The translations under genes were made by a program, and so were the position numbers. Positions 188 to 63,865 of a DNA stretch of 64,000 bases are shown here, piece by piece (position 1 is the stretch's first letter; each line of letters opens with the position of its first letter). Origin of the DNA: Saccostrea cucullata (taxonomy: Eukaryota). The notes under the pieces are model-generated. The model saw only the letters and a program-made list of their open reading frames with translations. It did not search any database and was not told the origin of the DNA. The DNA lies in assembly GCF_032062105.1 (NCBI RefSeq), contig NW_026929714.1, positions 310,001 to 374,000 of the forward strand, read 5' to 3'.

Positions 188-3100
188 ATGAGTTCTAGTG
201 TAAAATTCAATTCTTTTGACGATAGATATGTCCACACAACTGATGAGCAACCCACGATTATTGCTGTCTCATCTGGAATAGCAACCAAAAAGATTGCATT
301 AATCTTTGGTGCTATTGTCGTTGTTGGAATCATTGCTACAGTTGGGGTTATTCTTGGTGTCGTTATTCTGAAGAAAGGTAATAATATGAAATATGTAACA
401 CATACTTTTCATCACATAAAACGTAAATATTATCAACGCTAATTTCAATTAGGATAATTTGATGGAAATGTTACATCTAAAATAAATCAAAGATTTCAGG
501 TGTATACAGAAAATATTTAACATTTTAAATAAATAAATAGGGAAAAAAAAATCATTCACAATTTGTCCATAGTTGATAATACTCGTAAATCATTTGCAAA
601 TTATATGTTCATATTAATATAAAAATATGTATATTTAAGCATTGAATTAATATGTTTGGATGTCTTCGGTCCTATAACACACCTGGCCGTGTCGACAAAT
701 TGAATACCGCGCGTTAGCGCGGGATGATAATTTGTCGGCACGGCCAGGTGTGTTATAGGACCGAAGACATCCAAAAATATTAATTCAATGCTTATATTTA
801 CATTCTCTAATTTTCCTTCTTCACAATTGCTTATTTTGTTAATCTTTAATGTGAATTTTGCGCCCTTCAAAACTGCCGTGGTTAATAGATGTAAGAGCTG
901 TTTGTGACGTCAAATGACGTTAAATGACGTTGCAAAGTTAAATTACGAAAACAAACATTGCGAGGAAAAAAAGTAACAAATTAATTCTGAACGTCCATTT
1001 CGTTAATTTTACGTTAATTTTTCAGGGTTATAGTTTTTATTAAATTGAAATAAAACATTTTACATCTTGGTGTTCCTAGAGTATTGAAAATGCATATAGT
1101 TCCTACTGTGTATTCTAACGCGCGGTGACAAGGTTTCGCGTGTGTTATAGAAATTTGAACGTCGTGGATTTCTAATGGATTTCATAAGGAGAATTACACC
1201 GAATGTAAATATTTAAGCATTGAATTCATATTTTTGACTGTCTTCGGTCCTATAACACACCTGGCCGTGCCGACAAATTAAATACCGCGTGTTAGCGCTG
1301 TATGTTAAGTCTGTCGACACGGACAGGTGTGTTATAGGACCAAAGACAGCCAAAAATATTAATTCATTGCTTATATTTACTTTCTCTAATTTTCCTTCTT
1401 CATAATTGCTCATTTCGTTAATCTTTAATGTGAATTTAGCGCCCTTCAAAACTGACGTGGTTAATAGACGTAAGAGCCGTTTGTGACGTCAGATGACGTT
1501 GCAAAGTTAAATAACGCAAACAAACATTGCGAGGAAAAAAAGGGACAAATTAATTTTAAACGCACATTTGTAGTATTTTTACGTTAATTTAACAGGTTTA
1601 TAGTTTTTAATTAAATCGAGTCAAAACATTGTACATTTTATTGTTCCTAGATTATAGAAAATTCATGTAGTTCCTACTGTGTATTCTAACGCGCGGTGAC
1701 AAGGTTTCGCGTGTGTTATAGAAATTTGAATGTCGTGGATTTCTAATGAATTTCATAAGGAAAAATATACGGAATGTAAATATTATGATATATTTACATT
1801 CGGTGTAATTCTCCTTATGAAATCCATTAGAAATCCACGACGTTCAAATTTCTATAACACACGCGAAACCTTGTCACCGAGCGTTAGAATACACAGTAGG
1901 AACTATATGCATTTTCTATAATCTAGGAAGAATAAAATGAACACTGTTTTGACTAAATTTAATTAAAAACTATAACCCTGTTAAATTAACGTAAAAATAC
2001 TACAAATGTGCGTTTAAAATTAATTTGTCCTTTTTTTTCCTCGCAATGTTTGTTTGCGTTATTTAACTTTGCAACGTCATCTGACGTCACAAACGGCTCT
2101 TACGTCTATTAACCACGTCAGTTTTGAAGGGCGCTAAATTCACATTAAAGATTAACGAAATGAGCAATTATGAAGAAGGGAAATTAGAGAAAGTAAATAT
2201 AAGCAATGAATTAATATTTTTGGCTGTCTTTGGTCCTATAACACACCTGTCCGTGTCGACAGACTTAACATACAGCGCTAACACGCGGTATTTAATTTGT
2301 CGGCACGGCCAGGTGTGTTATAGGACCGAAGACAGTCAAAAATATGAATTCAATGCTTAAATATCAACTTAATTGTGCAGAGGACCGCTTAGCTGTGGTT
2401 TTATACTAGGGGTAATATGTTCCCAGATTTTCCTGGATTAACTATATATTTATCAAGGTCTCCTGGCGGATTTGATCAATTGACAGGGGATGCTTACTCC
2501 TCCTAAGGAACTCATTCCTCCTGTCATGCTTCCAATGGTCCGTGTGCTTGTCCTGTCCAAGATCCATATGATTTACAGGGTTTCTGTGATTGGTTTTTCA
2601 CATTTTTGTCCCCCATTGAAAATGAGGGATATTTATTTCGATCTGTCCGTTTGTTTGTCCATCCGTCTGTATCTGTATTTCTGTCCGTTTGTAATACTTT
2701 CGTTTCCACGCGATTTCCCGAAAAGCCTTTGAGCTATTGCAATGAAAAAAAAAACTAACGCCCTATGATCTGTGGAAGACCACTTTTGATTTTAAGGTCA
2801 AAAGTCAAGGTCTTAAATTAAAAAAAAATATACTGTCCGTTTTTACATTTTCCGAGTGGTATTTCCAGAAACCTTTGCTTATCTCAAAATCGTAAAGTTA
2901 TACATTCGATGTGTGTATAAAACTTTTATTTTCGTGCGATATTTCAAAAAGCCTTTGAGTTTTGAAAATTCAGCTTTATACCATAGCTTTCGATGACCCC
3001 TTCCGTGTTTCTTTAGGTGCCTCCCCTCGAGCCCTCCCTAGATTCGCGCATGCTCTTCTTTTCTCCTTAAGCGGGGCCACAGATTCTCTGAATGAGTTTG

Positions 3101-6100
3101 GTGACAATCCTTTTTGAATACGTTCAAAAAAGAAGATATGAACACTTTATTAAGATTTAAAAAAAAAATTTGCTATACCTATAATTAATTATTCATAGAT
3201 ATTCATTTTTTAAAGCTGTATACAAGTTGCGTTTTCCTTCATGTACACATCTGTAATTTGTTAATGCATAAGTGATTACATCGAGTTACATTTTTCAAGA
3301 ATATTTTACTCACGTTGCAATTGAGTGCTTCAGAAATTTCTTGTGTTCATATTAATATGAATAATATATTATAATTATATTTAATTGTATATTATTTTCG
3401 TTCTGAAGACCATAAAGGAAACGACCAGCCACCTGCAGTTATAAATGGTAAGTATACATTTACTACTTACACACTCTTCACCTTGAAGTCTTGTTTGAAT
3501 TCACACAGAATAATGGTTATTATTTTTTTTTTGCATAATTATAAAAAGTTGGAATACATGTATTAGATAAATTGCATATTCCGATTAAGAATAAAGAATT
3601 CATTAAAATACATTTAAACATAAGACATACAATTTTCTTTTAAGGACCAATAGATGGGAAATGGACTTACTGGGATTCATGGTCAGACTGTACTGTTACC
3701 TGTAGCGGGGGAAAACAAAGGCGCACCCGTAGCTGTACTTCTCCTCCACCTATGTTCGGGGGAAATTCCTGTGTAGGAAATTCAGAAGAAATAAGACAAT
3801 GCTCAACTTGGAATTGCCCAGGTAAGTAAGTAGGACCAAAACTTTTCTATACCTTAGGCTAATAAAAAAAAGGCTGCGTCACTGTTTTGATTTTTAGCCG
3901 GGCTTTGCTAAAAGTAAAGTCCTGGCTATAGGCATCATGATCGACTGTCTTACTATAAATAGCACAGTAAACAAAAAAAAAAACAAACAAACAAACAAAC
4001 AAACAACTTAAAAGCAGACGCTTCCGATAAACGAAATAGTGCCATTGCGAGACGATGTTCAAACAAATATTTTTAATATCCCAATCGTTGGAAAAGTTAA
4101 TAATCAACATTTCTGCTTGAGAATTAAACTGAGAGAGAAATTACATATTTGCTCTATTGAGAAAATCGTAATATAACAATTTGTGCACATACGCAGCTGA
4201 ATGCATATTGTAAGGGAACTATTTTCAATTGGGTGGGCTTTTCGAAAGGTTGAAATTGTTGAAGAGTTTCATGTCGCTTGACAAAGTACATGTATCAGTT
4301 TTTGTACATGTAGTTGGCGATAAAACTACTGTTTGTTTGAAACTAAAATAAAGAATGTCTCTTAAATATGTGCATTATTTTAACTATTCCAAGACTAAAT
4401 TTTTAAATTATGAGAAAAATATCTATTGAATAGAAAATATGCAAGAATTTTTTTTTTGGAAATATTATTTGTTAGATTTTAAAATCATGACATATCTTGG
4501 GGTCTGGACTGTTAATCTTAATTACTGGTATATGGGATGTTGTTAATTATAATCATACAAACTCTACCTGCTAAATGGCCGAAAGGAAGAAAAAATTAAA
4601 CATAAACTAATTTCGGTTCAGACAATATGCTTGAGCAATTAAAGCCCGGCTTTCAATTCTTTCAATACTTTGATTTATACTGTGTTTAAAAGTCACATTC
4701 ATTAAAGCCTTGGATTCTGCTCAGAGCAGATTAAACATTTTTTATATTTTCAGGATGATGGTTTGAAAAATAAAACCAACATCCTGAAAATAAAAAAAAA
4801 TTCTCTTCTATTTTAAGAAAGAAAAAAATATGGCTTTTAAGACATTCAATAGATGTTTAATTTTGCTTATTTTTCATAAATATGAAATCCTTAATTGCTT
4901 TGTTTGGCGATGATCCTATTTTGAAAAAAAAAGTTAAAATAATGGAACCAAAGATTTTGGTACCTCATCTTTACCTCATCTTTTCTTAAAACAGGCCAGG
5001 ATTCTGACTATTCATAGGAATAACTAGTTATTTTGAATTATTCAACCAAAATTGCATCCATTTAATGGTAATTAAACAGAGGATCGAAAAAAGAGTTATA
5101 TTGTATACCCTAAGCATTTTTCAACAGTTTCCTGTTGCATGAAAGACACAGAGCTTAATTAAGAAATACAAATTACCATTGTTTGCTGGTTCTAGACTAG
5201 TCATTTAAGTGATTCTTTTATCTCTATTTATGAAGAAATTTTAAGATTTTAGCTTCATCAAAAATTCACTTTTTCAAACATATCCTGGAATTTTCTCTAC
5301 TTTTTCTAACGTATTTCTTTCTCTGAACTGGCTTCAGCGTGCTACCGTAACAAACAACAAACAATTGGTAAAATGCAAACGAGACCTGATTGATAAAAAA
5401 AGCAAATAAAGCATAATTCCTTTCACTCGAAATAATTCAAATTTAAAAATTCTATTCAATTTGTGAATATATTTTTCAGATTGTTTGAAGATTCCTAATC
5501 TATGGCTGTCCATTTACCCCGAGACGCGTCGAAAATAGAATTTATAAAGAATATGGATGCCTTCATATGTCCATTTGAAAAAGTTTTACATAAAGTTATT
5601 TTCGAACTTTCTTCCTACACATAAGGAAAAAAACCCCACTTTTTTGCTGCAGATCTATATTTTCACATAGAGTTATAATAAGGAGATTTATACACATATA
5701 ATTATATAATTACAAGCTTAATACTCATCGATTGATTGTTTTATTACCATATTTAAATAGAGAGTTTAACGTCACAGAATAATACAAGGCATGCGCCTGA
5801 AAAAGTACATAGACAATTTTTCTTAAAGCTCTCTGTTAAGCTTATAGATGAGAAGAAAAGGTATATTTAAATGAAAAATAAAAATACAAATAAATTCACA
5901 AAATAATTTCAGATTGTGCCAGGACATGTCCTAATGGTGGAAGTCTTAGTCATAACTGTGAAATATGTGAATGCCCTTCATCAACGATCATTGGCAGGGT
6001 GATGGACCGCACCAACTTTACACTTGAAGGGGTTGAAATATTCTTGTCTTACCGTCCATGGAGTCCTATTGCTACAACAAATGTTCGTGGTGTATACACT

Positions 6101-9100
6101 GTATCAAATATATGCTTCAACTCTACTACCATTTTTGCAAAGAAAAGTGGTTTTTCAATTGCATATGTTACTCCAAGGAGACTGAATGCGACTCACTGGG
6201 AAGCATATTTTGAAATAAGAAAATTTGGTTCGTATTGAGATCAGTATACTTGTACATGTAAATGATATAACCTGATCTAATGAGATACAAGTTTGAAAAG
6301 TCAAGAAAAAATTAAAAGGATGTCAACTTTAAATTCTCAAAAAAAAAAAAAAAAAAAAGCTCGAAAATTTCGTGTTCTCTAATTTTTAAATGTTGGAATT
6401 AACGAGAAAAAATGTTACAAGTTTGAAAAAAGACCATTTACGGAATACATTTTTAAAGCTCCCTTTTCATGTTCCTCTAATCATTGTTTTAAAAAAATCT
6501 TTCCCGTAGTTTATATTTAGGTCAAAGCATCTTCATCAAAGTGGGATTATCCTTTGAGATGTAAATTTATTGATTTAAACTTCTTCACATATATGTTTAA
6601 AAATTGGATTTTAAGTATTTATGTGTATTGCACATTAAAAGAGTCGAACACATGTTATTAAATTAACTTGGATCTATGTAAAGATTTAATTGTGTACCGG
6701 AATGCCATTATGAAGGCATTGCAGTGAATATTTTGTTGCTCACTTTTGTAAGCATAAACATTTCATCTTCAGAAAAACCTTGGATTTCCCGAAAGCCTGT
6801 TCCAAAAATCCGATTTGTTGGACAATCAGCCACGTTTTGCTGTGAGGCAAACGGTTTCCCCTTACCCATAGACTTTATATGGTACACTCTTTTGATGAGA
6901 TTTTCTCTGTAAAGAAATTTTTTTTAATCAATATTAAAAATTATTTAAACTGCCGAAATTTTGTAAAAAATCTCTATCTAAATTTAGGTTCAAAGATGAT
7001 AACTTATTGCCAGGAATGGGAACAAATGGAAATTTGGTTGTTAGTTCCATTCAGAAATCAGACGCTGGGGCATACTATTGTAAGGCTACCACGGAAGCAG
7101 GATCAGTAACATCTGAACGCGTAACTTTAGATGTAAGAGGTATGTAGGATTTACACGAATATTTAATAATTTATTTTCTCTACAAAGTATTGCAGAAAAA
7201 GAGGTGTTTAATCAATTGCAATCAACATTTCTCTTCACTCAACACGTGAATTGGAATTTGCATTAGATTTTCATAATGATTATTTGAAAAGAAAAAAAAA
7301 CACAATGTAAAACACTTACTAGACTACTGGTTACTAGAAGTAAAAAAAATATTGGTGACGGAATAGAACAGAGAGAGGTTGTATTTTAAACAAGGAAAAA
7401 TAAATTAGTGCTTTCAATAGAAATTGGCCCTGTATTTTTCTACAATTATGAAGTGATGTAAGAAATTAAAATTGATCATCTCTGAATTAATGAAATTTCA
7501 TGCAGTAAAACATGTAAATCGTTTCTCCAATATGACCTCCTAAATGATTATTATTACGTCATGAAAATGTACATCTCCCGTACTTGTTTTAAAGTCACAG
7601 AAGACATGTACATCTATTTTAGTGAAATTTTCTTTCAAAAAACATACAACGAATGCATCGCCCACAAAGATTTGAGATATGTGATTTTTCAGAGCATTTT
7701 ACACAACATATCTAAAACTTTGAGTATGTGAGGGCTGCGGACACTATTTTCTAAAGGCAAATAAGCACAAAATAAGTCATTTTCTGTGTAAAACTTAAAA
7801 ATAATCAAGTTATGGTCGTCATATTTCCAGAATAATCATCCTTCATGCCAAATGTTTTAATGAATTATCATATTCATCTACTTAACTCATGTTTTAGACA
7901 ATTTCAAAACTTTTTAAGAACATTATTTTTAGGGTAGACCAAGTCGTACCTTCGTTTTAAAATTATTTTGTCTTAAGTAAAATAATAGAAGTAAAACATC
8001 TTTTTAGATACCTCTTATGATACCTGCAATCCAGTACCTACAGTGAAGGAAGAAACTCTACCAACTGGCTGCTATTTTAATGATAAAGGCAACAGTAAGT
8101 CAGTAGTAAACGTCGGAAAATGTCCAAATAGTAAATGCATTACAAATACCCTAGCTGACAATGGTACATGCGAAGATTGGTGGCCTCCTCACTGCTGTGA
8201 CGTATCCCAAACAGAGACAATTGAAATAGAATGCTCTGGAGGGTTTACCTATCCGATCACGAAAGTTATTTCTTGCAAATGTCGCGAAAACGTGATAAAC
8301 ACTCTTCTAAATGGAATAGCGTATGGTGTACAAAACGGAACTAGAATTCCTTTTGTCCGAGGAGAAGTCATGATAGACGGCGAAGTGAAATCTGTAACTT
8401 CGGCGACAGGATACTTTTCTGTCAATGTATTAGGAGAGGTTTCTCGTGTTGTCATGAACTTGCGTAATGATAGGTCTGGCCAACTCTTAGATACAAAAAG
8501 AGTGATAGATATTTCATATGGTACAACGACCTCCATTGATATCCACGTTCCACTAAAACCGGCACCAAAAACTTTCAACACACATCTCGGATTTGATATA
8601 CCCCTCGGGATGAAAAATGGAAACTCAGCAACTGCGAGGTTATCAATCGCAGCAGGCAGTGTTGTTGATGGAAATGGTAATGCTTTTGACGGGACAGCAA
8701 ACGCACGAGTTCATTACGTTGATCAACGGAATTTGGAAGATCTCGATGAGATGTACGGAGAATTAAGATTTACAGACGAAGAGGGAGATTCTGTTGACTT
8801 AGAAACATTTGGTATGCTTCAGTTATCCGTAGAAGACAACTCTGGAACACCTTTATATGTAAACGGAAAAATCAAAATGTCGCTTGATCCAGCACCTTTA
8901 AATTTGTCAAACGAAGGTGAAAATCTGCATTTGTATAGCTTAGACGTTAACACAGGAAAGTGGGTTGATCAAGGACTAATGCCGTACACTTCTTCCAGTG
9001 GTTCAAGTCGTAAACGAAGGTCAACGGGAGGAAATCTTGAGGGTATTGTCACAGATGCTATTCCAGTTATAGATCTAACACAGATAGTTGATAATATTAT

Positions 9101-10474
9101 TAAAGTAAGCTATACCAGATTAGTATCTTTAATCAACATAAGCCTAAGTAGACCTCGTATATATCGTATTATAACTGAATATCGGACAGTTGTTTCTCAT
9201 GATGTTGTCACGCGACATGATGCATGCTTTGTAAGAGTGAAAGCGTACACTGACTTTACATTTCGCAACGCAGCTGATGGTGTTCGAATTATAGCAGCGA
9301 CAAGAACTAAAAATGGAGGGCCATTTAGAGGGAAAATGTCCATGATAACGAACAATAATGTTAATAGTGGGATTTTGTGCATGCCGATATTTTGTAATTC
9401 TGATGTGTACCTCGCTGCAGAGAAAAATGGAAAATATTACGCTTCAGACAATCATATTTTACCCTCCGTAGCTGAGTCAGTGAACGTTGCAAATGGTACA
9501 CAAGTCAAACTTAATTCAGATTATGTCAATCGGGAAGGACCAGTTTTCCTTTATCAAAGACGACCACAATGTGAAGATAACGCATTTTCTAGCTTTGTGT
9601 TTCAGTTTGCCCCTCTCTTAAAGGAAGGCGAACGTAATTCGTTGTCTGGAGATAACGTACATAATCAAATAAATTCTTGGTATACCGAACCTTCAACTAG
9701 TCCCTTCAGACGAACATGCTTCATGAAAGTGAAAGTAGTGGTATGTAATCATTTTATTGTTTATTGTATGCAATTGTACCTAAAAATGCTTCTTTTAAGA
9801 AAATTAAAATCATCCTCTGAAACTATTTCAAGTGAAAAAAATGTGTAATTATATTAATAATTTCAAAGTTTCATATTTCTTTTAGTCCAATGAACATACT
9901 CTGCGGGCAATAGGAGTCAGTAGGATGGAATATGTAAGCAATGTACCTTTCTTTGGAACTTTTCAAGCACCAATTATATGGGATGAAACTACAAATAATA
10001 GGAGAGAAAAAGCTGCTTGCATAGAATTTCGATGTCCTGGAAGACTCATTGATGGCACCAACGTAATCAATAACATAGCCACACTTCTGAGGGTACAAAT
10101 TCTGAGTCAAGAAGGTCATGTTTGCAATATTACGTAAGAATTTACTTTATTTTAATCATAATTTCAAAAATGTGATTAGAAATCCTTAATGTGTGAGAAA
10201 CATGAAAATTTTATAATAAATTCTAAAAACTTTTTTTTTCAGAAACGTGGCAAGTGGACTTAATATTACTCGTACTTCAAGCATACTTGGTGGAGGTTTT
10301 GAGTTTCGGGCAGATCCAAACGACAATTACGGCGTCGGAATGGGAGTATTCATCCGAACGTTTCCCTTTGAAACTGCTAGATCTACCTGTCGCACTGGCT
10401 TAGACTCAACAAATATTAGCCCAATTATGAAGCCCAATTCAAATCCAGCAGTCGAATTGGAATGCATAATCTAA
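188..10474 (+). CDS. CILP-like (cartilage intermediate layer protein family) protein, copy 1, 1064 aa; exons 188-377, 3409-3447, 3645-3821, 5913-6227, 6773-6881, 6988-7139, 8008-9740, 9886-10133, 10243-10474
   Basis: Nine exons with GT-AG boundaries and matching phases join into one 3195-nt ORF. Motifs: hydrophobic anchor [30 protein letters not shown]; TSP1 ([28 protein letters not shown]); Ig ([12 protein letters not shown]...WFKD...DAGAYYC); CILP-type [17 protein letters not shown]...SCKC, LETFGM, GKW; RKRR (9009-9020); CFVRVKAY; CIEFRC. Copy 2 has identical exon sizes. Confidence 0.88.
631..2364. mobile_element. Unclassified about 575-bp element in three copies (direct, direct, inverted) in intron 1 of copy 1
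   Basis: Units 631-1211, 1209-1783 and inverted 1790-2364. Each has a terminal hairpin of about 165 bp (ATATTTAAGCATTGAATT...AATTCAATGCTTATAT). Absent from the matching site in copy 2 (about 34500). Confidence 0.75.
2601..2990. mobile_element. Degenerate non-autonomous Helentron-type element (paralogous remnant at about 34740-35090)
   Basis: TTTTTGTCCCCC...GAGGGAT end hairpin, TCCG/TCTG microsatellite, AAGGTCAAAAGTCAAGGTC satellite-like unit; same layout as 28763-29140. Confidence 0.5.
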
Positions 10475-10798: not shown

Positions 10799-12458
10799 TC
10801 AGGTACATTTTTATGTCATTGCAATTCCCACTTCCGGGTTCATTACATAATTGCTTTCCAATGCATTCTTCCCTGTGTAACAACTAAACTGAGCATTCAT
10901 TTTCTTATCCCGATACACTCCGACATTTGGGCCATAATTACTGTCAGGGATAAAAGTTCCAATGAAGGGAGAGTCTGTGGTATTTATGTTAGATTTGGTC
11001 TTTAGTTCATCCGAAAGCGATCTGGAAAAAAATCAAACATTGCCTATCTCGAGCGCACTAAATAACATTAAGAAGTAAGGTATATGAAATAGAAAAACGT
11101 CACGTATTGTCATAATAAAATACTTACATTAAGCTGCATGTTGAACCTGGCACTTTAGATATATATGCAGTTAAAATGTTAAAAATAAAAAAAATTATTG
11201 TTAGATGAGTCATACATGGGACATCTAAACTCAACGCAAACTGCTCGTTTGCCATGCCTGTTTCCTTTTAGCGGTGCGCTGAATGTTCCAAACCAAAAAC
11301 CTGTTTCTTCGCTATAACTTTTACCGACCGTTCCCGTGGACACAAGATTTGTCTGAAATAAAACATAATATTTTTTTGCAAACCACCTTTATCATGTTTA
11401 TCGAAAATTAAAAAAAAAATATCTCGTTTTGCGAAATTTCTTAAAAGAATTAATGGTCTATATCTCCATATCAATTACTGTATATTAATCGTATTTTTGC
11501 TTGATAGAAAGTATACAATTGTAAACTTAAATAAGAGGTACTGTATGCAATGAGTAATGATGCACTCCCATCTGGTTACAATGACAAAGTCGGTATTTCT
11601 CCCTGGCAGATCCGAAAATGTAAAGGTCCCATCAAATTTAATTCAGTATAGGATTAACGGATAAAAGATGGACACTCTTAAGCGCAACACACTGTCGGAC
11701 GGATCAACGAATGGACGACAGTATAGACGGAAGGACATCCCGATTACTTTATATACGTAACGCTTTTGCTTTTCAATCGGGGAGGATTGACTTGATACAG
11801 CACCTCAATCCAAATAAGAAAAAAAAAGTATGTGTAAATTTAATGACTTCACCTTCACGACAACTCGTTTGCATTATATTGACGTCTTATTCTAGTTTAC
11901 TTTGACTGAATGGCTACTTGTAGTTCAGAAAAGAGAAAGTGCAGAGTAATCCTTAACATAATTACCGACGAAGGATTTTATACACAAACCTTTCGCACAA
12001 GGAGGAAAGCTTCATCATATTGGTATTGTAAAAATAAAAATACAAATTGCGGCAATTATCGCTATTAAAAAAAAACATTTTTAATTTTTTGTCCTGGAAT
12101 TGAAGTAAAAACATGTACACTAAATATCATGACAATGCTGAAATTTTACCTTTATTTGAATTTTCACAAAGCAAGCTTCTTGAATGAACGCTGGATACTA
12201 AGAAGTACCAAAATCGTATTCTTTTGCATCAGGATTTCTTGTTAGTTTTCCCGAGAGACCTTGGAAATGAAAAGAAAAATATTGTCGTTTTGTGTTTTGT
12301 TCGGCACACTTTTCATCATTTGTGAAAATCGAACCATTTGTGTTGAGGATTGCAAATTTAATTTGTTCAAAATCTATGTTGATTTCCTCTCGGTATTCCC
12401 TAACAGTATATATAAATTTTGGTAAAATATTTTTTTTCTTGAAGCGGTAAGTGCTTTT
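10799..12458 (-). pseudogene. Pseudogene copy of the stand-alone CILP C-terminal gene (remnant exons about 12458-12150, 11352-11128, 11021-10799)
   Basis: Clear paralog of 51845-56127. Lesions: TGG>TAG at 12198-12200 (SWYP), a net +7-nt frameshift in the middle exon, and TAC>TAA just before the last Cys. The 5' half of exon 2 and exon 1 are not visible and are replaced by transposon sequence from about 12460. Confidence 0.85.
11531..11790. mobile_element. Degenerate Helentron-type non-autonomous element (paralogous copy at about 53543-53960)
   Basis: ATAAGAGGTACTGT start, GGAC/GACG microsatellite, 3' GC hairpin remnant; similar to 16036-16335. Confidence 0.5.
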
Positions 12459-13501: not shown

Positions 13502-13547
13502 TATTTATGAAAAAATAAACAAGAGACACAGAGAGACTTGAGCAAGT

Positions 13548-14185
13548 CTAGTCGATACGATATATCCTGGTGAGCTTGAGATAAAAGATACCACAGAGTC
13601 TGACACATCTGTTTCATACTTGGATATTTTATTTGAAAAAGACTTTAATGATAATCTAACAACCAAGCTATATGATAAACGTGATGACTTTAAATTTTCT
13701 ATCGTCAACTTCCTTTACTTATGCAGCAATATACCTTCATCACCTGCATACGGAGTCTATATATCTCAGTTGATTCGATACGCAAGAGCATGCTCTACGT
13801 ATGAATAATTTCTTAAACGAGGTAAATTATTGACAAGCAAGTTGATGAAACAAGGATATCAACAGTCTCGTTTAAAGTCATCATTTTGTTTTTATGGTCG
13901 CTACAATGACTTTGTCAGTAAATACAATTTATCATTGAGACAAACACTGACTGACGTTTTTCATACTTATTGTTAATCCATTATTTATACACTGAATTGA
14001 CGACGGATTTTCCCGTTATTTCCCAATCATAACAAGGAGCACACGGCGGTCAGCAGGGAATGCTCACTCCTTCATGGCATCTGATCATACCTCTGATGTT
14101 TCGGAGATCCGTGTTTGCTCTGCTCCAATTTTGTATTGTTTTATGGAGTTTGATATTGAATACTGTTATCTCCATATCCTTCTTA
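13548..14185 (+). mobile_element. 5'-truncated Penelope-like retroelement: RT C-terminus/thumb plus 3' non-coding element
   Basis: IYPGELEIKDTTES...SYLDI...TKLYDKRDDFKFSIVNFLYLCSNIPSSPAYGVYISQLIRYARACS..* then KLMKQGY...FYGRY, ending near 13976 with no downstream endonuclease. One internal TAA stop. Confidence 0.8.
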
Positions 14186-15769: not shown

Positions 15770-15963
15770 CAAGGATGACAACCCCCTTTGCACGTAAAAG
15801 ATCATTTTTCTGATGTACGAAAAAGAGTAAGCTTACTGAGGGCCGCCAGATAAACCAAAATCCTTCAAAAACCGATTATTTCGATTATTTAAACTGATAG
15901 TTAGCCGAAACATGGCTGAAAAATTGCCGACTCAGCGTTAAACAACATACAGTCAATCAATCC
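15770..15963 (+). mobile_element. SINE 3' remnant
   Basis: Ends GCGTTAAACAACATACAGTCAATCAATCC, the same tail type as the SINE at 22747-23047. Confidence 0.45.
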
Positions 15964-49000: not shown

Positions 49001-51328
49001 CCTTGTTGACAACGGTACATGCGAAGACTGGTGGCCTTCTCACTGCTGTGACGTATCCCAAACAGAGACAATTGAAATAGAATGCTCTGGAGGGTTTACC
49101 TATCCGATCACCAAAGTTATTTCTTGCAAATGTCGCGAAAACGTGATAAACACTCTTCTGAATGGAATGGCGTATGGTGTTCAGAACGGTTCTAGAATTC
49201 CTTTTGTTAGAGGAGAGGTCATGATAGACGGTGAAGTGAAAGCTTTTACCTCAGCGACAGGATATTTTTCTGTCAATATAGTAGGAGAGGTTACTCGTGT
49301 TGTATTAAACTTGCGTAACGATAGATCTGGCCAACTTTTAGATACAACAAGGGTAATTGATATTTCATATGGCACAACGACCTCCATCGATATTCACGTT
49401 CCACTAAAACCGGCACCAAAACCTTTCAACACACGTATCGGTTTTGATATACCCCTCGGAACGAAGAATGGAAACTCAGCAACTACGACGTTATCCATTG
49501 CAGAAGATAGTGTTGTTGATGGAAATGGCAATGCTTTTGAAGGGACAGCTAATGCACGAGTTCATTACGTTGATCCACGGAATTTGGAAGATCTTGATGA
49601 GATGTACGGAGAGCTAAGATTTACAGACGAAGAGGGAGAGTCTATTGACTTAGAAACATTTGGTATGCTTCAGTTATCCGTAGAAGACAATTCTGGAACA
49701 CCTTTATATGTCAATGGAAAAATCAAAATTTCGCTTGATCCAGCACCTTTTAATTTGTCAAACGAAGGTGCAAATCTGCATTTGTATAGCTTAGACGTAA
49801 ACACAGGAAAGTGGGTTGATCAAGGTCTAATGGCGTACAATTCTTCCAGTGGTTCAAATCGTAAACGAAGGTCAACTGGAGGAAATCTAGAGGGTATTGT
49901 CATAGATGCTATTCCAGTTATAAAACAAACAGAGGAAGTTGATAAAATTATTCAAGTAAGCAATACCAGATTAGTATCTTCTATCAATATAAACAAAGAT
50001 AGACCTCGAATATATCGTATTATAACTGAATATGGGACTGTTGTTACTCGTGAGGATGTCACATTACAAGATGCTTGCTTTGTAAGAGTGAAGGCGTACA
50101 CTGACTTTACATTTCGCAATGTAGCTAGTGGTGTTCGAATTACAGCAGCGACAAGAACTAAAAATGGTGGGCCGTTTAGGGGACAAATGTCAATGTTTAC
50201 GAACATTAACGTTAATAATGGAATTTTATGTATGCCGATATTTTGTAATTCTGATGTGTACCTCTTTGCAGAGAAAAACGGAAAATATTACGCTTCAGAC
50301 AATCATATTTTACCCTCCGTAGCTGAGTTTGTGAACGTTGCAAATGGAACACAGGTCAAACTCAATTCAGATTATGTTAATCGGGAAGGACCAGTTTTCC
50401 TTTATCAAAGACGACCACAATGTGAAGATAACGCATTCTCTAGCTTTGTGTTTCAGTTTGCCCCTCTCTTGAAGGAAGGTGAACGTAAGTCATTGTCTAA
50501 AGATAACGTACATAATCAAATAAATTCCTGGTATACCGAACCTCCAACTAGTGCCTTCAGACGAACATGTTTCATGAAAGTGAAGGTAGTGGTAAGTATT
50601 TTTTCTTATTGTTTATTGTATGCAATAACAATTTACTCAGGAAAATAAAAATAATCCTCTTAAACCGTTTCAACTAAAAAAATAATGTGTATTTATAGTA
50701 ATAATTTAAAGATTTTCTATTTCTATAAAATATTTAAACAGAATCATATCTCTTTTAGTCCAATGAACATACTCTCCAGGCAATAGGAGTCAGTAAGATG
50801 GAATATGTTAGCAATATACCCTTTTTTGGAACTTTTCAAGCACCAATTATATGGGATGAAACTACAAATAATAGGAGAGAAAAAGCTGCTTGCATAGAAT
50901 TTCGATGTCCTGGAAGACTCATTGATGGCACCAACGTAATCAATAACATAGCCACACTTCTGAGGGTACAGATTCTGAGTCAAGAAGGTCACGTTTGCAA
51001 TATTACGTAAGATTTTACTTTATTTCAATTATACATGTTATATCAACATTGTGATTAGAAATCTTATAATAAATCCTATAAACTTATTTTTTTCAGAAAC
51101 GTGGCAAGTGGACTTAATATTACTCGTATTCCAAGCGTACTTGGTGAAGGTTTTGAGTTTCGGGCAGACCCAAACGACAATTACGGCGCAGGAATGGGTG
51201 TATTCATCCGAACGTTTCCATTTGAAACTGCAAGAGCTACATGTCGCACTGGCTTAGACTCGCCTAATATTAGCCCAATTATGAAGCCCAATTCAAATCC
51301 AGCAGTCGAATTTGAATGCTTTATCTAA
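34064..51328 (+). CDS. CILP-like protein, copy 2, 1064 aa; exons 34064-34253, 35526-35564, 35757-35933, 46705-47019, 47572-47680, 47785-47936, 48859-50591, 50759-51006, 51097-51328
   Basis: Same nine exon lengths (190, 39, 177, 315, 109, 152, 1733, 248, 232) and splice sites as copy 1, with an open frame. RKRR at 49860-49871. Intron 3 is enlarged by a 9.5-kb insertion. Confidence 0.88.
40459..41172. mobile_element. Possible short TIR element (CAGGGATGGATCCAG...CTGGATCCGCCAATG)
   Basis: Imperfect 15-bp inverted ends with adjacent G and C runs. TSD not clear. Confidence 0.4.
42076..42161. repeat. Small hairpin MITE-like repeat
   Basis: TGTCATCTTTGCTAGCCTAGGGTTTCCGATCCGAAAGC / GCTTTCGGATTGGAAGCCCTTGGCTTGCGAAGATGACA. 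Confidence 0.6.
42441..42978. mobile_element. Foldback MITE (about 260-bp arms, short spacer), TAATCTC termini, 9-10-bp TSD
   Basis: Almost entirely palindromic; flanked by CATTGTATTC and CATTGTATTT. Confidence 0.85.
45018..46189 (+). mobile_element. Internally deleted mariner element nested in the right subterminal array of the 9.5-kb element
   Basis: TA|CGAGGGTTGATCCAAAA...TTTTGGATTAACCCTCG|TA. Transposase N-terminal remnant (KSPVET; RWFQRF; [31 protein letters not shown]). No catalytic domain seen. Confidence 0.85.
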
Positions 51329-51462
51329 CAAAGATTTACAATCATTGCTTTTATGATTTTCTTTCATAATGTATTTTTAATCACTTTTCATGAATAGGGT
51401 TTCTAATTTGATCTTTTGATTTGTAATTATTTTAGCAATTTTTGTGACCAAATCAAAAGACT

Positions 51463-51593
51463 NNNNNNNNNNNNNNNNNNNNNNNNNNNNNNNNNNNNNN
51501 NNNNNNNNNNNNNNNNNNNNNNNNNNNNNNNNNNNNNNNNNNNNNNNNNNNNNNNNNNNNNNNNNNNNNNNNNNNNNNNNNNNNNNNNNNNNN
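51463..51593. other. Assembly gap (N run)
   Basis: 131 N. Confidence 0.99.
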
Positions 51594-51788
51594 ATGCTGC
51601 TACTTTTATGTACATGTTTTTTATGTTTGTAAACTAGTAAAATGTGTATTGAAAATAATCAAGTAAAATTTCCACCAACAATACCTTATTAATTTAATGA
51701 TACTCTGAAAATAATTTAATTTAAGAAATTTTAATTGAGAAATAAATCAAAAGAAGATGTTATGCCTTCTCTTTCCCATTAAGTTTTT

Positions 51789-51822
<34 letters not shown>

Positions 51823-51844
51823 TATGAGTGTTTTAATTCCCTCC

Positions 51845-54800
51845 TCAGGTACATTTGTATGTTATTGCAATTCCAACTTCCGGGTTCATTACATAATTGC
51901 TTTCCAGTGCATTCTTCCCTGTGTAGCAACTGTACTGAGCATTCATTTTCTTATCCCGATACACTCCGACATTTGGTCCATAATTACTGTCAGGGATAAA
52001 AGTTCCATTGAATGAAGAGTCTGTGGCATTTATGTTAGATTTTGTCTTTAATTCACCTGAAAGCGATCTAGAAAAAAACCCACACATTGTCTATCTCAAA
52101 CACACTGAATAACATAAAAAAGTAAGGTACATGTATATGACATAGAAAATTGGAAGGTATTGTCATAATAAAATACTTGCATTAAGCTGCATGTTGAACC
52201 TGGCACTTTAGATATATCTGCAGTTAAAATGGTGGATATTTTATTGTTAGATGAGTCATACACGGGACATCTAAACTCAACGCAAGCTGCTCGTCTGCCT
52301 TGCCTGTTTCCTTTTAGTGGTGCGATGAATGTTCCAAACCAAAAACCCGTTTCCTCGCTATAACTTTTACCGATAATTCCCGTGGACACAAGATTTGTCT
52401 AAAACAAAGATAAATGTTTTCAGTAAACAACTTTGATTGAAAACACAAAACATTAATAATTTCCCGTTTTGCTAGATTTATTAGAAGAATTAAAGAAAAA
52501 CATCTTCATATCAATAACTGGTATATAATTAGTATTTTTGTCCATAAAAAGTATACGAGGGGTGATCAAAAAGTTTGCGAACAAACTGATTTACTTCAAT
52601 AAAACAAGTAAAAATCAGGTTTCAGTGTTCATAATTTTTTAAAGTAGCCCTCTTCGACTTTAATGCATATGTGCCGCCGTTCTGCCCATGCGAATCACGT
52701 GGTCAAGGCAGTCACATGACGTGCTCTGAAGCACTCTGTCCATAGACGCTGAAATATTTTCCCTAGTCTTATATTTCTTACCATGGAAGTATTTCTTTTT
52801 TACAACAAGAACAGTCCATTTGTCAGAAGTGACCAAATCTTTGAAATAGGATGGTTGGATAAGAATATTATTTCCCAAAGAGATTCGAGTATAATGACAA
52901 TCACAACCTGATTCCTCTGTCTTAGGAACGCCGTTTATCCGATATGGATAATATTTTGTAGTATAAAGGCCTTCTTTTCATCATATTTAATGTTTCAAGT
53001 CTAAAATAAACGATGTTTATGGATTTAAAATTAATGTCATTATAAAGGTATTCAACTATTTTTCTAGCTGTAACGGTGCAATCTTTCATTGTCCAATTGT
53101 CCAACAAAGGTTACATTTCTTCTCCAGCTTGCCTTCTCTGGCTTCAAAACAAACGTCATTTTTATCCATCTCCCTCCCTTCACTTTAACAGTAAATCCAA
53201 GTTATAATTAAACGTGTGGAAAGTCTATTGTCTTCATAAACACTGTACAAATTATTACAAGATACTTCAAAGGAATTCCCAAGTTATATTTTAAACTTTA
53301 GAGTCGTATGTTGTTCGAGTAAGACTGTGACAACCATTTTTCGTCACGAGTCTCCTACATATTGACGTCATTTTCACACTGTGACGTCACATTGATGGAG
53401 AAAATCATTACTTTCATATGCTATATATAGAACGTGCATGTGTATAGGTGTTCCAAACTTCATTCCGATCTGAATTATAATTTTGTAAATATAGAGATAG
53501 TTGACGAACTTTTTTATTACCCATCGTACCCTTGTGAATCGGAATAAGAGGTACTGTGAGCAATGATACATTCTTCAATATGGTTACAGTGGCAAAGTCT
53601 TTGTTTTGCTCTGGAAGACCCGAAATCAGTGTATAATCAAAAAGTAAAATTGGAGGTACACGTACCCTTTAAGTATATTGAAAGAATGGCAGTGTCCATG
53701 TTTCTTTTGGAAACTCAAACATATTTGTCCGATCAAAAAGTAAAATAGAGGTGTGCAATGTCACTTTGTGAAGAAAAGGTCTCATAAGGTCTCATAAAAT
53801 TTCATTCAGTGGTATACGATTTACGGATAAAAGATTGGTACCCCAAAGCGAAACAATCGGGTGTATGGACATACAGATAAACGGATGGACGCACGTACAG
53901 AGGGACGGACATCCCGATTTCTATACCCCCTCTTGCTTTTCAATCGGGGGGAGGGGACAAAAAGAAGCTAGACCCCACTCTTAGAGCAAACCTTTAGTAA
54001 AGCTTTGCTAAGACTCCCCAAACCGTTAAAAGATTTTAAAATATAATGATTTAATATGTACGTAATTTATCTAAATCATATACAGGGGCGTCCAGACTAA
54101 ATATATGAAACATTTTTTGTGATATAACATTATTTCGTTAATAACATGTCGGCCAATCATATTTTTAGATGTTGCACATAACACTTTTTGTACATTAAAT
54201 GAAGAATATATACAATCATGGAATTTGTGTATATTTCAATTTGTGTTTATAAGGACCAGTGACAAGTGATACTGGTCAAAGTCGTTATCATTGCTCTCAT
54301 GATTTGGCCAATATCACCTGACACTAATTCTTTTAAAAAACTATAAATAAATGTCTTAAACGTTCATAGAAGTCCGTAGTAGTATTTTACGTATATAACA
54401 ATTACATTGAATACTCAGACACATGCAATCCTAAATGAACTCGACTGTCATTACATAACAATTGTAAAACATGGGTATGATATATACTAAATCTAGTACA
54501 GCCTAACGGTGATTCGTGAAACATCATTTGGCGATTCTTTCGCGTCAATATCACAAAAGGATGAATATATCGTGACTTGCTTTCAACTTATGATAACTAG
54601 GTAAACAATCTTTTTATATGATTTATAAAGTCATTGTTTCCTTTTTTATGCATGCCAACTGATCGTCAAGTTGTGAACACAAATGTTCTATGAAAAAATC
54701 AAAGCATTACGTGTATTTGAAACATTTTATTTAAAATCTTCATTTACTGTTATAACTCTATTCAGTATCGTAATCTAAACAAGTCTATAATACATTTAAA

Positions 54801-56127
54801 TGTTTTGGATTTTTACGATTAATTTGAAGCAACGTAATAAATCAAGTGGTTTACACACCTATAATCTAGCACTAATTAATCCCAAGACATTTAACAAAAT
54901 ACATTTATATATATTTCTCGTAAACACTGTAATTACGTTATTATTTCAATCGAAAATAATTAAGAGAATAATTTAAGCTCAGCTGAACAGAAGGTTCTTC
55001 AGGACTTGGGGAAGGATAAAACCACTTATATTTTTTTATTTATTTATTTATTGGTTTCTCGGTTTCTCTGACGAAAGTGCTCAGATGCTTGATCTGGCCA
55101 ATGGACCTCTTGCAATTATAAATTCGGACTCGTTACAGCACTCAAATAAGAAGAAAACAATTATGAAATAATGAATTTCGAAATATTTAACAATGTGTAA
55201 ATTATAGGACACTCCCCTTCAGGACAGGTCGTTTGCATTAACTCGGCGTCTTATTCCAAATGACGTCATGAATTGCTACTTGTTGTTCCGAGAAGAGGAA
55301 GCACAAAGTCATTCTTAACTAACCTACGAAGGATTTAATACATAAACCGTTCGCAAATCACATATTCGCGTTGTGAAAATAAAAAAAAACCAAATTGTGA
55401 CAATTATCTGAATTAAAAGAATATCTGTTTCAATCTTAAGTTTTACCTGTATTTGAATTTTCACAAAGCAAGCTTCTTGAATGAACGTTGGATACCAAGA
55501 AGTAAGAAAATCGTATTCTTCTGCACTAGGATTTGTTGTTAGTTTTCCCGAAAGTCCTTGAAAATTAAAAGAAAAATATTGTCGTTTTACATTCTGTTCG
55601 TCACAATTTTCATCATTTCTAAACATTGGACCATTTGTGTTGAGGAGTGCGATTTTAATTTGTTCAGAATCTAGGATGATTTCCTCTCGGTATTCTGTTA
55701 CAGTATATATAAATTGTGGTGAAATATTCTGTTTTTCTTTTGGGGCAGCAAGTGCTTTTTCATCTTCAGTTTCTGCTATGATCTTTATTTTTCCATCACA
55801 TGGAGCTCGGATGCAAACACTGCCTTTTTCGTCGGATTTATACATACTGTATACCACGTTTTCCCCATTTTCCGACGAAATTATGTAGACAGGTACAGAA
55901 GGAGTTGTTGCTGTAAAATGGGGATCGTTGTATACCTTGACTCCAGCAAAGCAAGGTGCTGAAGTATTGGAAAAATATTTTATAAGGAAATAAAATCATA
56001 AGATATAGATATAATCAAATCGTTAATGTGCATTCAAAGGAATAAAACAATCAAACCTTAAATTAAATGTACCTTGTAATCCAAAATCACAACTGAAAAT
56101 AATTGTTATTATAAAAAGCATCAGCAT
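51845..56127 (-). CDS. Secreted stand-alone CILP C-terminal-region protein, about 335 aa; exons 56127-56073, 55958-55447, 52398-52181, 52067-51845
   Basis: Exon 1 encodes a signal-peptide-like MLMLFIITIIFSCDFGLQ. The rest (APCFAGVKVY...GSVCIRAPC...NGPMF...SWYP...ACFVKIQIQ / FGTFIAP...AACVEFRCP / NYGPNVGVY...SCYTG...YKCT*) aligns colinearly with the post-RKRR part of the long genes. Its two 3' intron positions and phases match the long genes. The intron 3 donor is GC in this model. Confidence 0.8.
52556..53526 (-). mobile_element. Degenerate mariner-like element in intron 2 of the stand-alone gene
   Basis: TA-flanked imperfect TIRs (CGAGGGGTGATCAAAAAGTT). ILIQPSYFKDLVTSDKW resembles the mariner HPPYSPDLAPSD motif. 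Empty site in unit 1 near 11513. Confidence 0.75.
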
Positions 56128-57226
56128 TTTTAATATCTCTGTAGGTTTCCGGCACATCAAATATATGTGCAAAGCATACTAGTAATCTATTATAAATGTA
56201 CAAAAATACTTTATTCAAGCTGTTGAATAAAAGGTAAACAGAAAACCCAACTCTCAAATCAGAAAAATCTAATATACGATGGAAACAATGTATTTGTACA
56301 ACAAACTGATCATTCTCTAAATTTATTTTAGAGATAAGATTTAAACCGGTTTAATTTGAAAATAAGATGAAAAAGTTTGTACAAGTGTATTCATATGTTT
56401 GTCCAAAACTGTCATACAATTCGCTCTTAATAGCGAATGCTTATGTCTAGTGTCCGCCCAGGCCTTGGTGTCGACCCCAAGCAGAAGAATGCAGTCACAA
56501 AATATAAAAAAAATACCATCGCAGTAAAATTTTCCTATTTTTAAGTTAAAAAAATTCAATAATTTTTAGCATTTTTTTTTACATATGTTCAAGTATGTTT
56601 AAGTTAAGATCTTTGTAAAAGAGAAATAGAATAATGCAGTAACCATCCATTGATTGTCGCTTTTTCATGCACTAACATTATAGTCTATGTTTTTTCTTCA
56701 TTTTTGCCTTGTGCTTTTCATGGAATAAGAGGGTAGATTTTTTTAATAAAATGTGAACACTAAACAGCCGTGGAAAAAATTGACCGAAATTACCAGGGGT
56801 AGTATAAAATACATCCAAATATTATAAAAATTCATGAAGCTTTAAAAACTATCAAAATAGTAAAATTGTTAAAAGTTGGGTTAGGTGCCAAAAATAAGCC
56901 TTCAACTTTAACCGATTACAAACTACATATAAATATATTTTGTGCGAAGCAACGCCATGACTGAATAGGCAAGGAAAATATATCAAAAATATAGCAAATG
57001 TATTTTTGAAAAAATAGATAAAGGACCCCATTTACAAAAGATAAATGAACCAATTTACAATAGTATTAAATTTGATTATAATTATTCAAACTTAAAGTAA
57101 GTAAAGCCCTTTGACAAACTGTCACAGACGCAACATTTGAATGAAATTAAGTTTTACATAATAAACATTCTTTTAATGTATTATTAAAATATCTATCATG
57201 TTATTTTATTCATTTTTGTAGATATA

Positions 57227-61300: not shown

Positions 61301-63633
61301 GCTCACGATGCGCGTGACTTGTCAACTGAGGTTGCTAGCACCTACTACTACTACTATAGGGACATGACTAAAATATGCAAATTATGATTGAAAACTCTAG
61401 TAGACAATTTGATTTTGTAAGATGGATTATTAATTAAATTTGGGACATAAAACAATAATTTCGGAAAGACTAGATGTGGGATTAACCACCTTGATCATGT
61501 TTTAAAGGAATAAGCATCCCATGTCAGCAGTTAACATCTGCCCATAGCCCTACGTGTACCGATTGTTAAGCATAATAAAAAAGGAAATGACTGGTGTATT
61601 AACCATTGACTGTTCTTGTAGTATTATTTACTTTTATAGTTCGGAAATCCAACTGTTCGATTTAAAACTATACTTATTATAAATTTATTGATTTTTAACT
61701 ATTTGTAGTAACGTTTAAAGTGGAAGCCAGAAGTGGCAGCTTTACTGCAGAGAAGAGTCACTTGAAAAAACTTTAAGTGGATATCAACAACATGAAAAAC
61801 AGCTTTTTGCGACATGAAATTGGACAATATTTATTACAGTTGCAAGTGTTGTATTTAACTTCACATTCGCATGTAAACAGTAAAAGATGTTTCAATAACT
61901 CTGTGGTGTACCAAAACCCATATTCAGATCACATCGGATGAAATTATTGGGCTTATAATCTCTACAAAGTGCATTGTATTTATCACAAAATATGTCTATC
62001 TGCATAGTATGAGTAAGTTGTATGCAGTATAGCAAGCATGCAGTAAGAAAAATGATGAATCTGCTCTGTGCGTTTTTTATTTATTGCAAAAATGCTGTTA
62101 AACCTTTGAAAAAAATTAATGAAATTGTGATGTCAAACAGTAGTTGTTGATTATATTATAATTACAATGACCAAAATCTACTTTTATTCGTGTTTGATAT
62201 TATACAATTATTGCAGTTTTCGAGTTGAAAACGATGATATTTTAGCATTTGTTAAAGTCCACACTAACTGTAAAGCGTCGCAAAACGTCGGCGCAAGGGC
62301 ATATCATATCTAATTTAAAATAAACAATGTATAATATTTAGGAAAATAGTCCTAAAAATATCAAAATTGCTGCGCAAATTCTATGTACTTGCTCAATCGA
62401 TAAAATTTTTGAAAAACCTACACTGGACTGTGATATTTTTACCCTGTTAAAACTTAAAACTGCACGAACAGTAACTAAGCAATTGCATTGCCGACATTTG
62501 TGCAGCAATATCTTAAATCCTTGGAATATCCTGCGTCTTTTTATACCTTCTTTCTGCAAAACAAAATAAGGTATGCTCTTGCGCCGAAGCGATTTGATTG
62601 ATGTTTATTATAAACTTGTGTAGTAGAGGTCGATGACGTCATAATTTGACGTCATAATCTGTACTGGCTATTGCATGTCGTGGGTACCAAGAATGTATTA
62701 GAAAACAAGTCTTAACCTTTTTCTGTGTGGTAGGTAGATCAATTATGGAAATTAATTAATATTTTGCATAGAAACCTCCATATGTAGCCTTAACCCACTT
62801 GCGAATTAGATAATTTAATACAAGAGAAAAAAAATCCTTAAATGCAACAAAGGTACTACAAATCAACACAAGTGTCAGTTTATATAGTGAAAACATTCTG
62901 CCATGAAACAGGACGGGGTATTTTGGAATTATACTCAACATACATGTGTACATATTGTTCAGTAAATATGTTCAATGATTGATTAGGGTTCAATGATTAA
63001 AAATATTACACACCATATATAACTTGGCCTAACTCTCGGGCAGCAATACCAAAATATTTATCCCTTGGTGACAGGAAAGCCATGGAGTGTTATGTCACCT
63101 TGTCATTTACACACAGAATTGTGGCCGGTCGGCAGGGATACTCACCCTTCTATGGCACCTGATCCCAACTTTGATATTATATTTTCATTTCATGCGGAAA
63201 CAATTCTTATCTATATGAAAAATATACTTGAAGGAATAAAAAATATATCTAAATATCTAAATATATCTAAAATTCATAAACAAATACTTTGATTACTAAA
63301 GTGAAAACTAAACGTAAGATTTTGTGTACATTCTTCTTCATATGAATGTAAAAGATTTTGTACAGATGCTGATCTATTCAAAGAGTACTTACTGTCTTTA
63401 TTACTTATTTAGTTCGAAGTACTTAAAAAGTTTGAATATTTGTATCATCACCAATAATAAGTGCTCTAAAAACTACCCCATCTTTCTTCTGGTGACCGAA
63501 CCTATCATAATTTCCCATGTGTTCAACTAAAATTATCCGCATGCTTTTTTCTAAACAACATTCTGATGACTATTAAATCAACGCAAATGAAAGCATCCAA
63601 TTCATATTTATTGTAAAAACATGCTTCACTTAA

Positions 63634-63865
63634 TTATTGACAGGTAAAACCCAAAGCTACTCCAACTTCTGGCTCCATTTCATACACGCTTTCAAAGGCG
63701 TTTCGTCCGGTATAACAACTGAAACGCGCAATATCTTGAGGCTCTTTGACGTTTTTATATATTCCAACATTGGGACCATAGTTGCTGTTGGACGTCAGAT
63801 TTCCCCAAAAGGAAGTGCCCGTCGTATCCAAGATCCCTTTCTGAGCAAGATCGTTTGATGTGAAT
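63634..63865 (-). CDS. Last exon of a third CILP C-terminal-type paralog (gene continues beyond the window)
   Basis: AG acceptor, phase-2 start, 232 nt. Encodes FTSNDLAQKGILDTTGTSFWGNLTSNSNYGPNVGIYK...FSCYTGRNAFESVYEMEPEVGVALGFTCQ*, homologous to the last exon at 51845-52067. Confidence 0.8.

Follow-up and report, generated by a model that had tools for sequence, protein, structure and literature searches.

Layout of the locus

The window analysed here is a stretch of 64,000 nucleotides (nt) from the oyster Saccostrea cucullata (assembly GCF_032062105.1, contig NW_026929714.1, positions 310,001 to 374,000), which holds two long and several short genes of the CILP type together with the remnant of a kexin/furin-type proprotein convertase gene. 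As the sequence-only reading of this stretch had claimed, six elements are present in the order long (+), short (-), convertase (-), long (+), short (-) and the last exon of a further paralog (-), and their coordinates are collected in Table 1. A point not made in that reading is that the two long/short pairs are both copies of one single block: by self-BLAST, copy 1 is colinear with copy 2, the match being interrupted by repeat insertions and running up to a final block in which 20097-20402 equals 61640-61955. The non-coding blocks of the two copies are mostly 70-86% identical and the exons of the long genes 90-98%, while the spacer of 13.5 kb at 20.4-33.9 kb, which contains the convertase remnant, has no gene-like counterpart in the rest of the window when the window is compared with itself.

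Table 1. Features of the window, with positions counted from its first letter
Feature	Position	Strand	Basis or remark
Copy 1 of the colinear duplicated block	103-20402	none	self-BLAST; partner 33977-61955
Long-1, CILP-like, 9 exons	188-10474	+	open 1064-aa frame, GT-AG introns, Pfam
Long-1 exons	188-377, 3409-3447, 3645-3821, 5913-6227, 6773-6881, 6988-7139, 8008-9740, 9886-10133, 10243-10474	+	
Short-1, pseudogene of a tail-only CILP	10802-12450	-	73-90% amino acid identity to short-2 exons
Inferred duplication junction, where copy 1 colinearity ends	20402-21172	none	~0.8 kb from last convertase exon
Kexin/furin-type convertase 5' fragment, pseudogene	~23696-21172	-	head-to-head with long-2, ~10 kb from its start codon
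Convertase pro-domain exons	~23696-23616, ~22418-22311, ~21629-21530	-	P0007/P0008 matches
Convertase catalytic-Asp exon; damaged next exon	21433-21296; ~21216-21172	-	Pfam Peptidase_S8 E 1.6e-4 for the Asp exon
Long-2, CILP-like, 9 exons	34064-51328	+	open 1064-aa frame, RKRR 662-665
Long-2 exons	34064-34253, 35526-35564, 35757-35933, 46705-47019, 47572-47680, 47785-47936, 48859-50591, 50759-51006, 51097-51328	+	
Short-2, 4 exons, 335 aa	51845-56127 (56127-56073, 55958-55447, 52398-52181, 52067-51845)	-	
Third short-type paralog, last exon	63637-63864	-	48% to short-2 (E 1e-19); Pfam CILP_C E 2.4e-4

Tandem duplication accompanied by pseudogenes is ordinary in oysters, and the copies hold two intact and constrained long genes, one intact short gene and one dead short gene, which bears out the birth-and-death cluster proposed earlier. 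The copies might also be haplotypes of a single locus joined in tandem by the assembler, since oyster genomes are highly heterozygous and two gaps of N (23286-23534 and 51463-51593) lie within the window. However, the synonymous divergence of the long genes (dS 0.22) and the low identity of the non-coding blocks are far beyond allelic levels, and over 616 aa a separate protein record, P0005, shares 97.2% of its residues with long-2 but 87.5% with long-1, so that alleles and paralogs can be told apart. Such an assembly artefact is hardly credible to us and was rejected on these three grounds. The best explanation, which we regard as fairly probable when taken as a whole, is that an older tail-to-tail pair of a long and a short CILP gene was copied by segmental duplication in the oyster, with a breakpoint that likely cut a neighbouring convertase gene; the duplication itself is shown by the colinearity.

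The long genes

Long-1 and long-2 agree in the length of every exon, all their introns are GT-AG, and their proteins are 89.8% identical; the nonsynonymous divergence dN is 0.051, and the resulting dN/dS of 0.23 shows that both genes are constrained. The protein begins with an N-terminal tail and a hydrophobic anchor (residues ~36-61), followed by TSP1, carboxypeptidase-regulatory-like, Ig, CILP_5th and CILP domains, then by a predicted ZU5/GAIN-like domain carrying the motif RKRR, and at last by CILP_8th and CILP_C. In Pfam, TSP_1, CILP_5th and CILP are above the cut-off on the window exons, Ig and CILP_C are so on the ortholog P0002, CILP_C is weaker on the window exons, and CILP_8th is weak on long-2 (E 0.0015). 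TSP1, Ig and the CILP-specific domains are thus found in order. Moreover, the internal furin consensus R-x-K/R-R occurs as RKRR, the putative cleavage site, at residues 662-665 of both proteins. P0001-P0005 and P0022 carry the consensus at the corresponding position; P0015 has KNRK at this place and RTRR about 25 residues further on. Judged by domains and furin site, the long genes, which are already named CILP-like in public annotation, are members of the CILP family that differ by a predicted anchor.

This anchor is a hydrophobic segment of about 25 residues starting at residue 36, behind a hydrophilic tail of about 35 aa, and the whole N-terminus is nearly identical in P0002 of Ostrea edulis. 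By hydropathy it is of the signal-anchor type and not a cleavable signal peptide, and together with the extracellular character of the remainder this makes the long protein a likely type II membrane-anchored protein. The membrane-tethered precursor of the sequence-only reading therefore stands as a prediction.

The best protein matches are P0001 of S. cucullata, 99% identical to the exon-7 frame of long-1, and P0002 (73%; 1063 aa), which matches eight of the nine long-1 exons, the exception being exon 2 with its 39 nt. The public model P0001 is identical to long-1 except that it lacks exon 4 (105 aa), which may reflect alternative splicing or a gap in annotation.

The two genes have not diverged evenly along their length. 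The 68 residues after RKRR (49866-50070; 9015-9220) show a dN/dS of 0.88 on 68 codons vs 0.16-0.20 in the other parts, and this segment, which is of low confidence in the structural model described below, appears to be relaxed or diversifying. In residues 779-853 (50200-50450; 9350-9600) there are 11 sites at which long-1 equals long-2 and differs from the allele-like P0005. Only one site of this kind lies outside that stretch, so a gene-conversion tract is likely here. Exon 1 is 98% identical between the copies, vs about 90% for most exons.

The short genes

Short-2 encodes a predicted signal peptide, a transthyretin/CnaB-like domain equivalent to CILP_8th, and CILP_C. Free homologs of the C-terminal chain, as the earlier reading put it, are in fact present in the form of a leader with the two distal CILP domains: the homology extends over ~330 aa with a BLASTP E of ~1e-19 in a small subject set, and short-2 aligns to everything in the long protein from Cys734 onwards at ~25% identity, with 10 of 10 cysteines kept and two intron positions in common. 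Furthermore, short-2 is 58% identical to P0010 (337 aa; Pfam CILP_C at E 8e-8) over the full length, leader included. Because of this full-length match, the low identity to the long tail and the shared cysteines and introns, the short form goes back to an ancient partial duplication that joined the 3' end of a long gene to a leader exon, and not to a recent truncation. The N-terminal chain (TSP1, Ig, ZU5-like) and the furin site are absent from short-2 and from its complete homologs P0010, P0017 and P0021, and no R-x-K/R-R site occurs anywhere in the short-2 protein; by domain content, the short genes are a domain-loss variant of the CILP family.

The 335-aa frame of short-2 is open, while in short-1 exon 1 is gone together with the 5' half of exon 2, and the rest is broken by a TGG to TAG stop in exon 2, a +7 frameshift in exon 3 and a TAC to TAA stop in exon 4, in agreement with the earlier view of the first short gene as a pseudogene and the second as apparently intact. 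Intron 3 of short-2 has a GC donor (position 52180) and is GC-AG, where short-1 has GT. The third short-type exon, at the right end of the window, is 29-32% identical to the long proteins (E 0.001-0.006), well below its match to short-2.

A HMMER search for short-type proteins found 13, whereas a word-indexed search with exon 2 of short-2 found none among 100 candidates. Three of the 13 (P0010, P0017 and P0021; 337-414 aa) are complete proteins with a hydrophobic leader and CILP_C, three more (P0013, P0014 and P0020) have the leader and are cut short, four are fragments, two (P0015 and P0022) are of the long type, and P0018 is spurious; the last, a repetitive coiled-coil matching by composition, was rejected as a short homolog and excluded from the alignments and the tree. 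Each of the 13 sits in its own 50%-identity cluster, which argues for a diverse family, and the short tail-only proteins are by these comparisons an old and diverse one. In a tree of the first tail domain with 19 rows, four of the rows labelled short (P0011, P0012, P0016 and P0019) being fragments whose short status is unproven, short and long rows group apart, with the long-branch P0022 among the short rows. Here the short form needs two changes, and one change in 12% of the bootstrap trees, so a single origin is neither shown nor excluded.

Transcript contigs of three RNA runs (X1, X2 and X3) were compared with 45900-56400 of the window. A contig of X3 (2276 nt, ~92% identical to long-2) skips the last two long introns exactly as modelled, one of which X2 also supports, and exon 4 of long-2 is covered by X2 contigs and joined to exon 5. 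For short-2, a single X3 contig makes the modelled joins 52067/52181 and 52398/55447; use of the GC donor itself is not established by it, because the contig comes from a relative. Spliced contigs of the long and the short gene thus occur in the same run, X3.

The convertase remnant

Four of the five convertase exons match P0007 at 73-85% amino acid identity, and the third was recognised by eye and by a weak match to P0008. P0007 is a furin-like, partial protein of 186 aa on a 15-kb contig labelled as the same species. The reading frame changes within the second pro-domain exon, and damage is also seen at the 5' end of the exon that follows the catalytic-Asp exon. When the intact P0008 was cut into 30 tiles, four matched the remnant; none of the 22 tiles from residue 161 on, which hold the His, Asn and Ser motifs and the P domain, did so, and these gave two weak matches elsewhere (E 0.044). 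A regular-expression scan likewise found no intact subtilisin motif of a convertase, with one chance match at 43211. An active convertase needs the catalytic Asp, His and Ser and the oxyanion Asn within a single open frame, and a P domain besides; here the Asp exon alone is present, with frameshifts on both sides of it, and the remnant is unable to encode an enzyme.

The position of the remnant is informative, for only ~770 bp separate its last exon from the start of colinearity with copy 2. Because it stops within ~0.8 kb of the edge of the duplicated block, the remnant is likely a passenger of the breakpoint, the duplication having cut a neighbouring convertase gene. On the simplest account, a tandem duplication with its left breakpoint inside such a gene, the right-hand copy would begin with a 5' fragment, and the parent convertase would be expected to the left of the window. 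Another origin, still as a passenger, would be that a mobile element delivered or shortened the fragment, or that a later deletion shortened it, as might be imagined in a window rich in repeats and palindromic elements and for a spacer with no gene-like counterpart in it; we hold this to be unlikely, considering that the truncation falls so close to the block edge and that the five exons are still in order, introns included, over 2.5 kb.

The sequence-only reading had also suggested that the convertase might be a dedicated protease linked to its substrate. This is not supported, since the remnant is dead and cut off near the edge of the block, and since its intact relative P0008 appears ill suited to the task. 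In P0008 a pro-domain, an S8 domain and a P domain are accompanied by a hydrophobic C-terminal segment; the His, Asn and Ser motifs are all preserved, and furin is the best solved relative (E 1e-124). Aligned to furin, P0008 carries N for D154 and G for D264. These two acidic residues, in furin numbering, belong to the pocket and favour basic P2 and P4 residues as in RKRR. The probable end of the pro-peptide in the remnant is RVVR and not R-x-K/R-R. Spiralians have kept six groups of convertases, with the furin-like ones broadly expressed in leech (10.1101/802215). For these reasons, the substitutions in P0008 and the six groups kept, even the parent of the remnant appears a poor candidate for a dedicated RKRR enzyme.

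One may still suppose that a lineage-specific convertase is kept beside the CILP cluster as the dedicated enzyme, the remnant being merely its dead duplicate. The remnant does stand head-to-head with long-2 at a distance of ~10 kb, in the tandem case the parent would lie to the left of long-1, and P0008 retains its catalytic motifs in a subfamily, marked by DNG, that diverges from furin. We nevertheless find this very improbable: the sole convertase copy in the window is dead, and its loss went along with continued purifying selection on both long genes; RKRR is canonical for ordinary furin, a gene type of broad expression in the leech according to the same source (10.1101/802215); and P0008 is without the acidic residues named above.

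As side observations, P0007, P0008 and the remnant form a divergent subfamily with DNG in place of DDG, and the pro-peptide ends of P0007 and P0008 are not R-x-K/R-R either. ARAGORN calls a tRNA-Glu(TTC) at 22971-23043 (-) inside a convertase intron, likely a short interspersed nuclear element derived from a tRNA.

The furin site in a predicted ZU5/GAIN-like domain

For the structure around the cut we used an AlphaFold2 model of P0005, which is 97% identical to residues 449-1064 of long-2; its mean predicted local distance difference test (pLDDT) is 65.8 and its predicted template modelling score 0.40. In this model RKRR (residues 214-217) falls in a loop predicted with low confidence, and the next strand spans 223-227. 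Of the 50 rows listed by a VIA structure search, eight are GAIN or ZU5 domains; their alignments begin near residue 62 (41-64), end at 229-230 and so span the furin site. Foldseek against the PDB gave no clear match for this model or for that of the short protein, and the ESM Atlas no match reaching 0.9. If the model is right, RKRR sits inside a beta-sandwich like that of ZU5 and GAIN, with the next strand on the C-terminal chain.

A mechanism can be proposed from this arrangement. The RKRR of the long protein would be cut by an ordinary, unlinked furin in a loop of the ZU5/GAIN-like sandwich, and since the following strand would belong to the C-terminal chain, at least one strand would hold the C-terminal chain to the N-terminal one like a clip, so that the distal two-domain module would be displayed on the cell. 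The long protein would then be a type II matrix or adhesion protein of the cell surface.

Several points weigh against this account and its setting. The model is modest, with residues 210-219 and 229-282 below pLDDT 50, and the GAIN and ZU5 rows that span the furin site (Z 5.6-7.6, root-mean-square deviation (rmsd) 3.7-4.7 over 115-142 residues, on a model of that mean pLDDT) all have Z below 8, which by the tool may indicate only a common arrangement. In vertebrates the furin products of CILP are described as free N- and C-terminal domains (PMC12839030, PMC7251193). The topology comes from hydropathy alone, and KK stands on both flanks of the anchor. No intact close parent of the convertase appeared by protein search, the two candidates being the partial P0007 and P0008 (58%). 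As for the RNA runs, exon 1 of short-2 has no contig cover in the three of them; the contigs, at ~92% identity, stem from a relative, and neither copy can be named as their counterpart; X1 has a piece of the short gene and no depth on the main exons of the long gene; and long and short contigs in the same run do not amount to co-expression in one cell.

A proposed role for the short proteins

The model of the short protein, with pLDDT 76.9, has two beta-rich domains, of which residues 23-158 are transthyretin/CnaB-like (best VIA Z 8.8, rmsd 2.2, 82 residues aligned); the CILP_C domain was barely covered by that search. The first Cys of the transthyretin-like domain marks the start of the short proteins, which are without the ~68 residues that follow RKRR in the long protein. 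Because they would thereby lack the strand that completes the ZU5/GAIN-like domain across the cut, they are likely free soluble modules and not substitutes for the cleaved chain, contrary to one suggestion of the sequence-only reading. A short protein would be the distal module minus the clip, a freely secreted matrix or mucus protein which needs no convertase. At the most, it might act as a decoy that vies with the tethered module for its ligand.

Alternatively the short proteins may dock as partners or substitutes on the cut N-terminal chain and thus swap the module displayed. They consist of the same two-domain module with all cysteines kept, the tail-to-tail linkage was kept through the duplication, and spliced contigs of both genes occur in X3. 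Docking is nonetheless quite improbable in our view, as the modelled strand is missing with the ~68 residues, the identity to the long tail is only ~25%, and short-1 died while long-1 stayed intact.

Keeping to the soluble module, one can imagine a two-form CILP system of the oyster, in which a furin-nicked, clipped and tethered heterodimer releases or displays its distal module in the manner of an adhesion G-protein-coupled receptor ectodomain, while an old expanded family secretes this module ready for use, its products acting on the same target as soluble decoys or ligands. The fast-evolving segment of 68 residues would be the exposed diversifying part. This is a speculation, to which we give some chance and a rather small one.

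Comparison with known systems

The vertebrate proteins CILP1 and CILP2 have TSP1, Ig, CILP_5th, CILP, CILP_8th and CILP_C in the same order, and an internal furin site as well (PMC12839030, PMC7251193). CILP2 is secreted with a signal peptide of 21 aa (PMC12839030), whereas the oyster long form has its ~35-aa tail and ~25-aa hydrophobic segment. Separate secreted genes with the tail only, which the oyster has, are not mentioned in the accessible text of either source (PMC12839030, PMC7251193).

The modelled RKRR domain can be aligned to the GAIN domains of GPR126, GPR110, CELSR1, BAI3, GPR56, GPR97 and CD97 and to ZU5-ANK. GAIN domains cut themselves at a motif HFS/HLT. In the oyster a convertase would instead cut the chain, within a loop that precedes the last strands, and no HFS/HLT motif follows the matched strand in the oyster long proteins. 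An HFS motif does occur in P0006, a lipoprotein-like bacterial protein homologous to the two domains that precede RKRR, a short distance beyond the matched part. ZU5-like domains in CILP and FAM171 have reportedly been noticed by Liao et al. in 2014 (J Mol Biol). In FAM171 a ZU5-like domain comes after a carboxypeptidase-regulatory-like one (10.1101/2025.09.18.675241), the same pair as in the oyster long protein. The structural matches, though below the score that the tool asks of a clear match, agree with this architecture and with the claim of Liao et al.

With the kexin/furin convertases (S8B) the remnant shares the pro-domain and catalytic-Asp exons; it differs by lacking the His, Asn, Ser and P-domain exons, by its frameshift and by the DNG of its subfamily. 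Soluble paralogs that keep only the ectodomain of a membrane receptor are known as the decoy type. The short gene resembles them in that its predicted secreted product is nothing but the distal module of the membrane-anchored paralog to which it is linked, and a decoy function is a possibility only.

In the literature on CILP of bivalves, molluscs and invertebrates, no paper on the long or short forms stood, by title or abstract, among those listed, and none linking ZU5 with CILP was found, most subscription papers and, for the former, supplements being outside the scope of the search; the gene lists in supplements of oyster genome papers may already name these genes. The protease link, being most likely a by-product of duplication, adds little, and the main interest lies in an anchored long form paired with an old secreted family of tail-only proteins. 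The C-terminal chain of vertebrate CILP was first tied to nucleotide pyrophosphatase, was later found without that activity, and has no agreed function (PMC12839030). A likely secreted gene family that encodes the module alone indicates that the module folds and works alone, and the short protein offers a small construct (~320 aa) for work on structure and ligand. Moreover, the membrane-anchored oyster form suggests a role at the cell surface for invertebrate CILPs.

Repeats and mobile elements

Intron 1 of long-1 contains at 629-2364 a nested palindrome with arms of 575 nt, 97% complementary and separated by 6 nt, and a third copy at 88%; this element is absent from long-2. Long terminal inverted repeats bound the elements at 14626-18260 (~750 nt), 39062-43963 (~440), 42441-42978 (243) and 24487-24623 (67), which are likely foldback or non-autonomous DNA transposons. 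A repeat of ~700 nt occurs in inverted copies at 26318-27019 and 52553-53277 (69%), the second deeply covered by contigs in all three runs, and its ends resemble Tc1/mariner termini. Within the region that replaces the 5' end of short-1 there is a frame of 88 aa at 13542-13805 (+), which has no Pfam match and resembles the C-terminal part of a Penelope-type reverse transcriptase.

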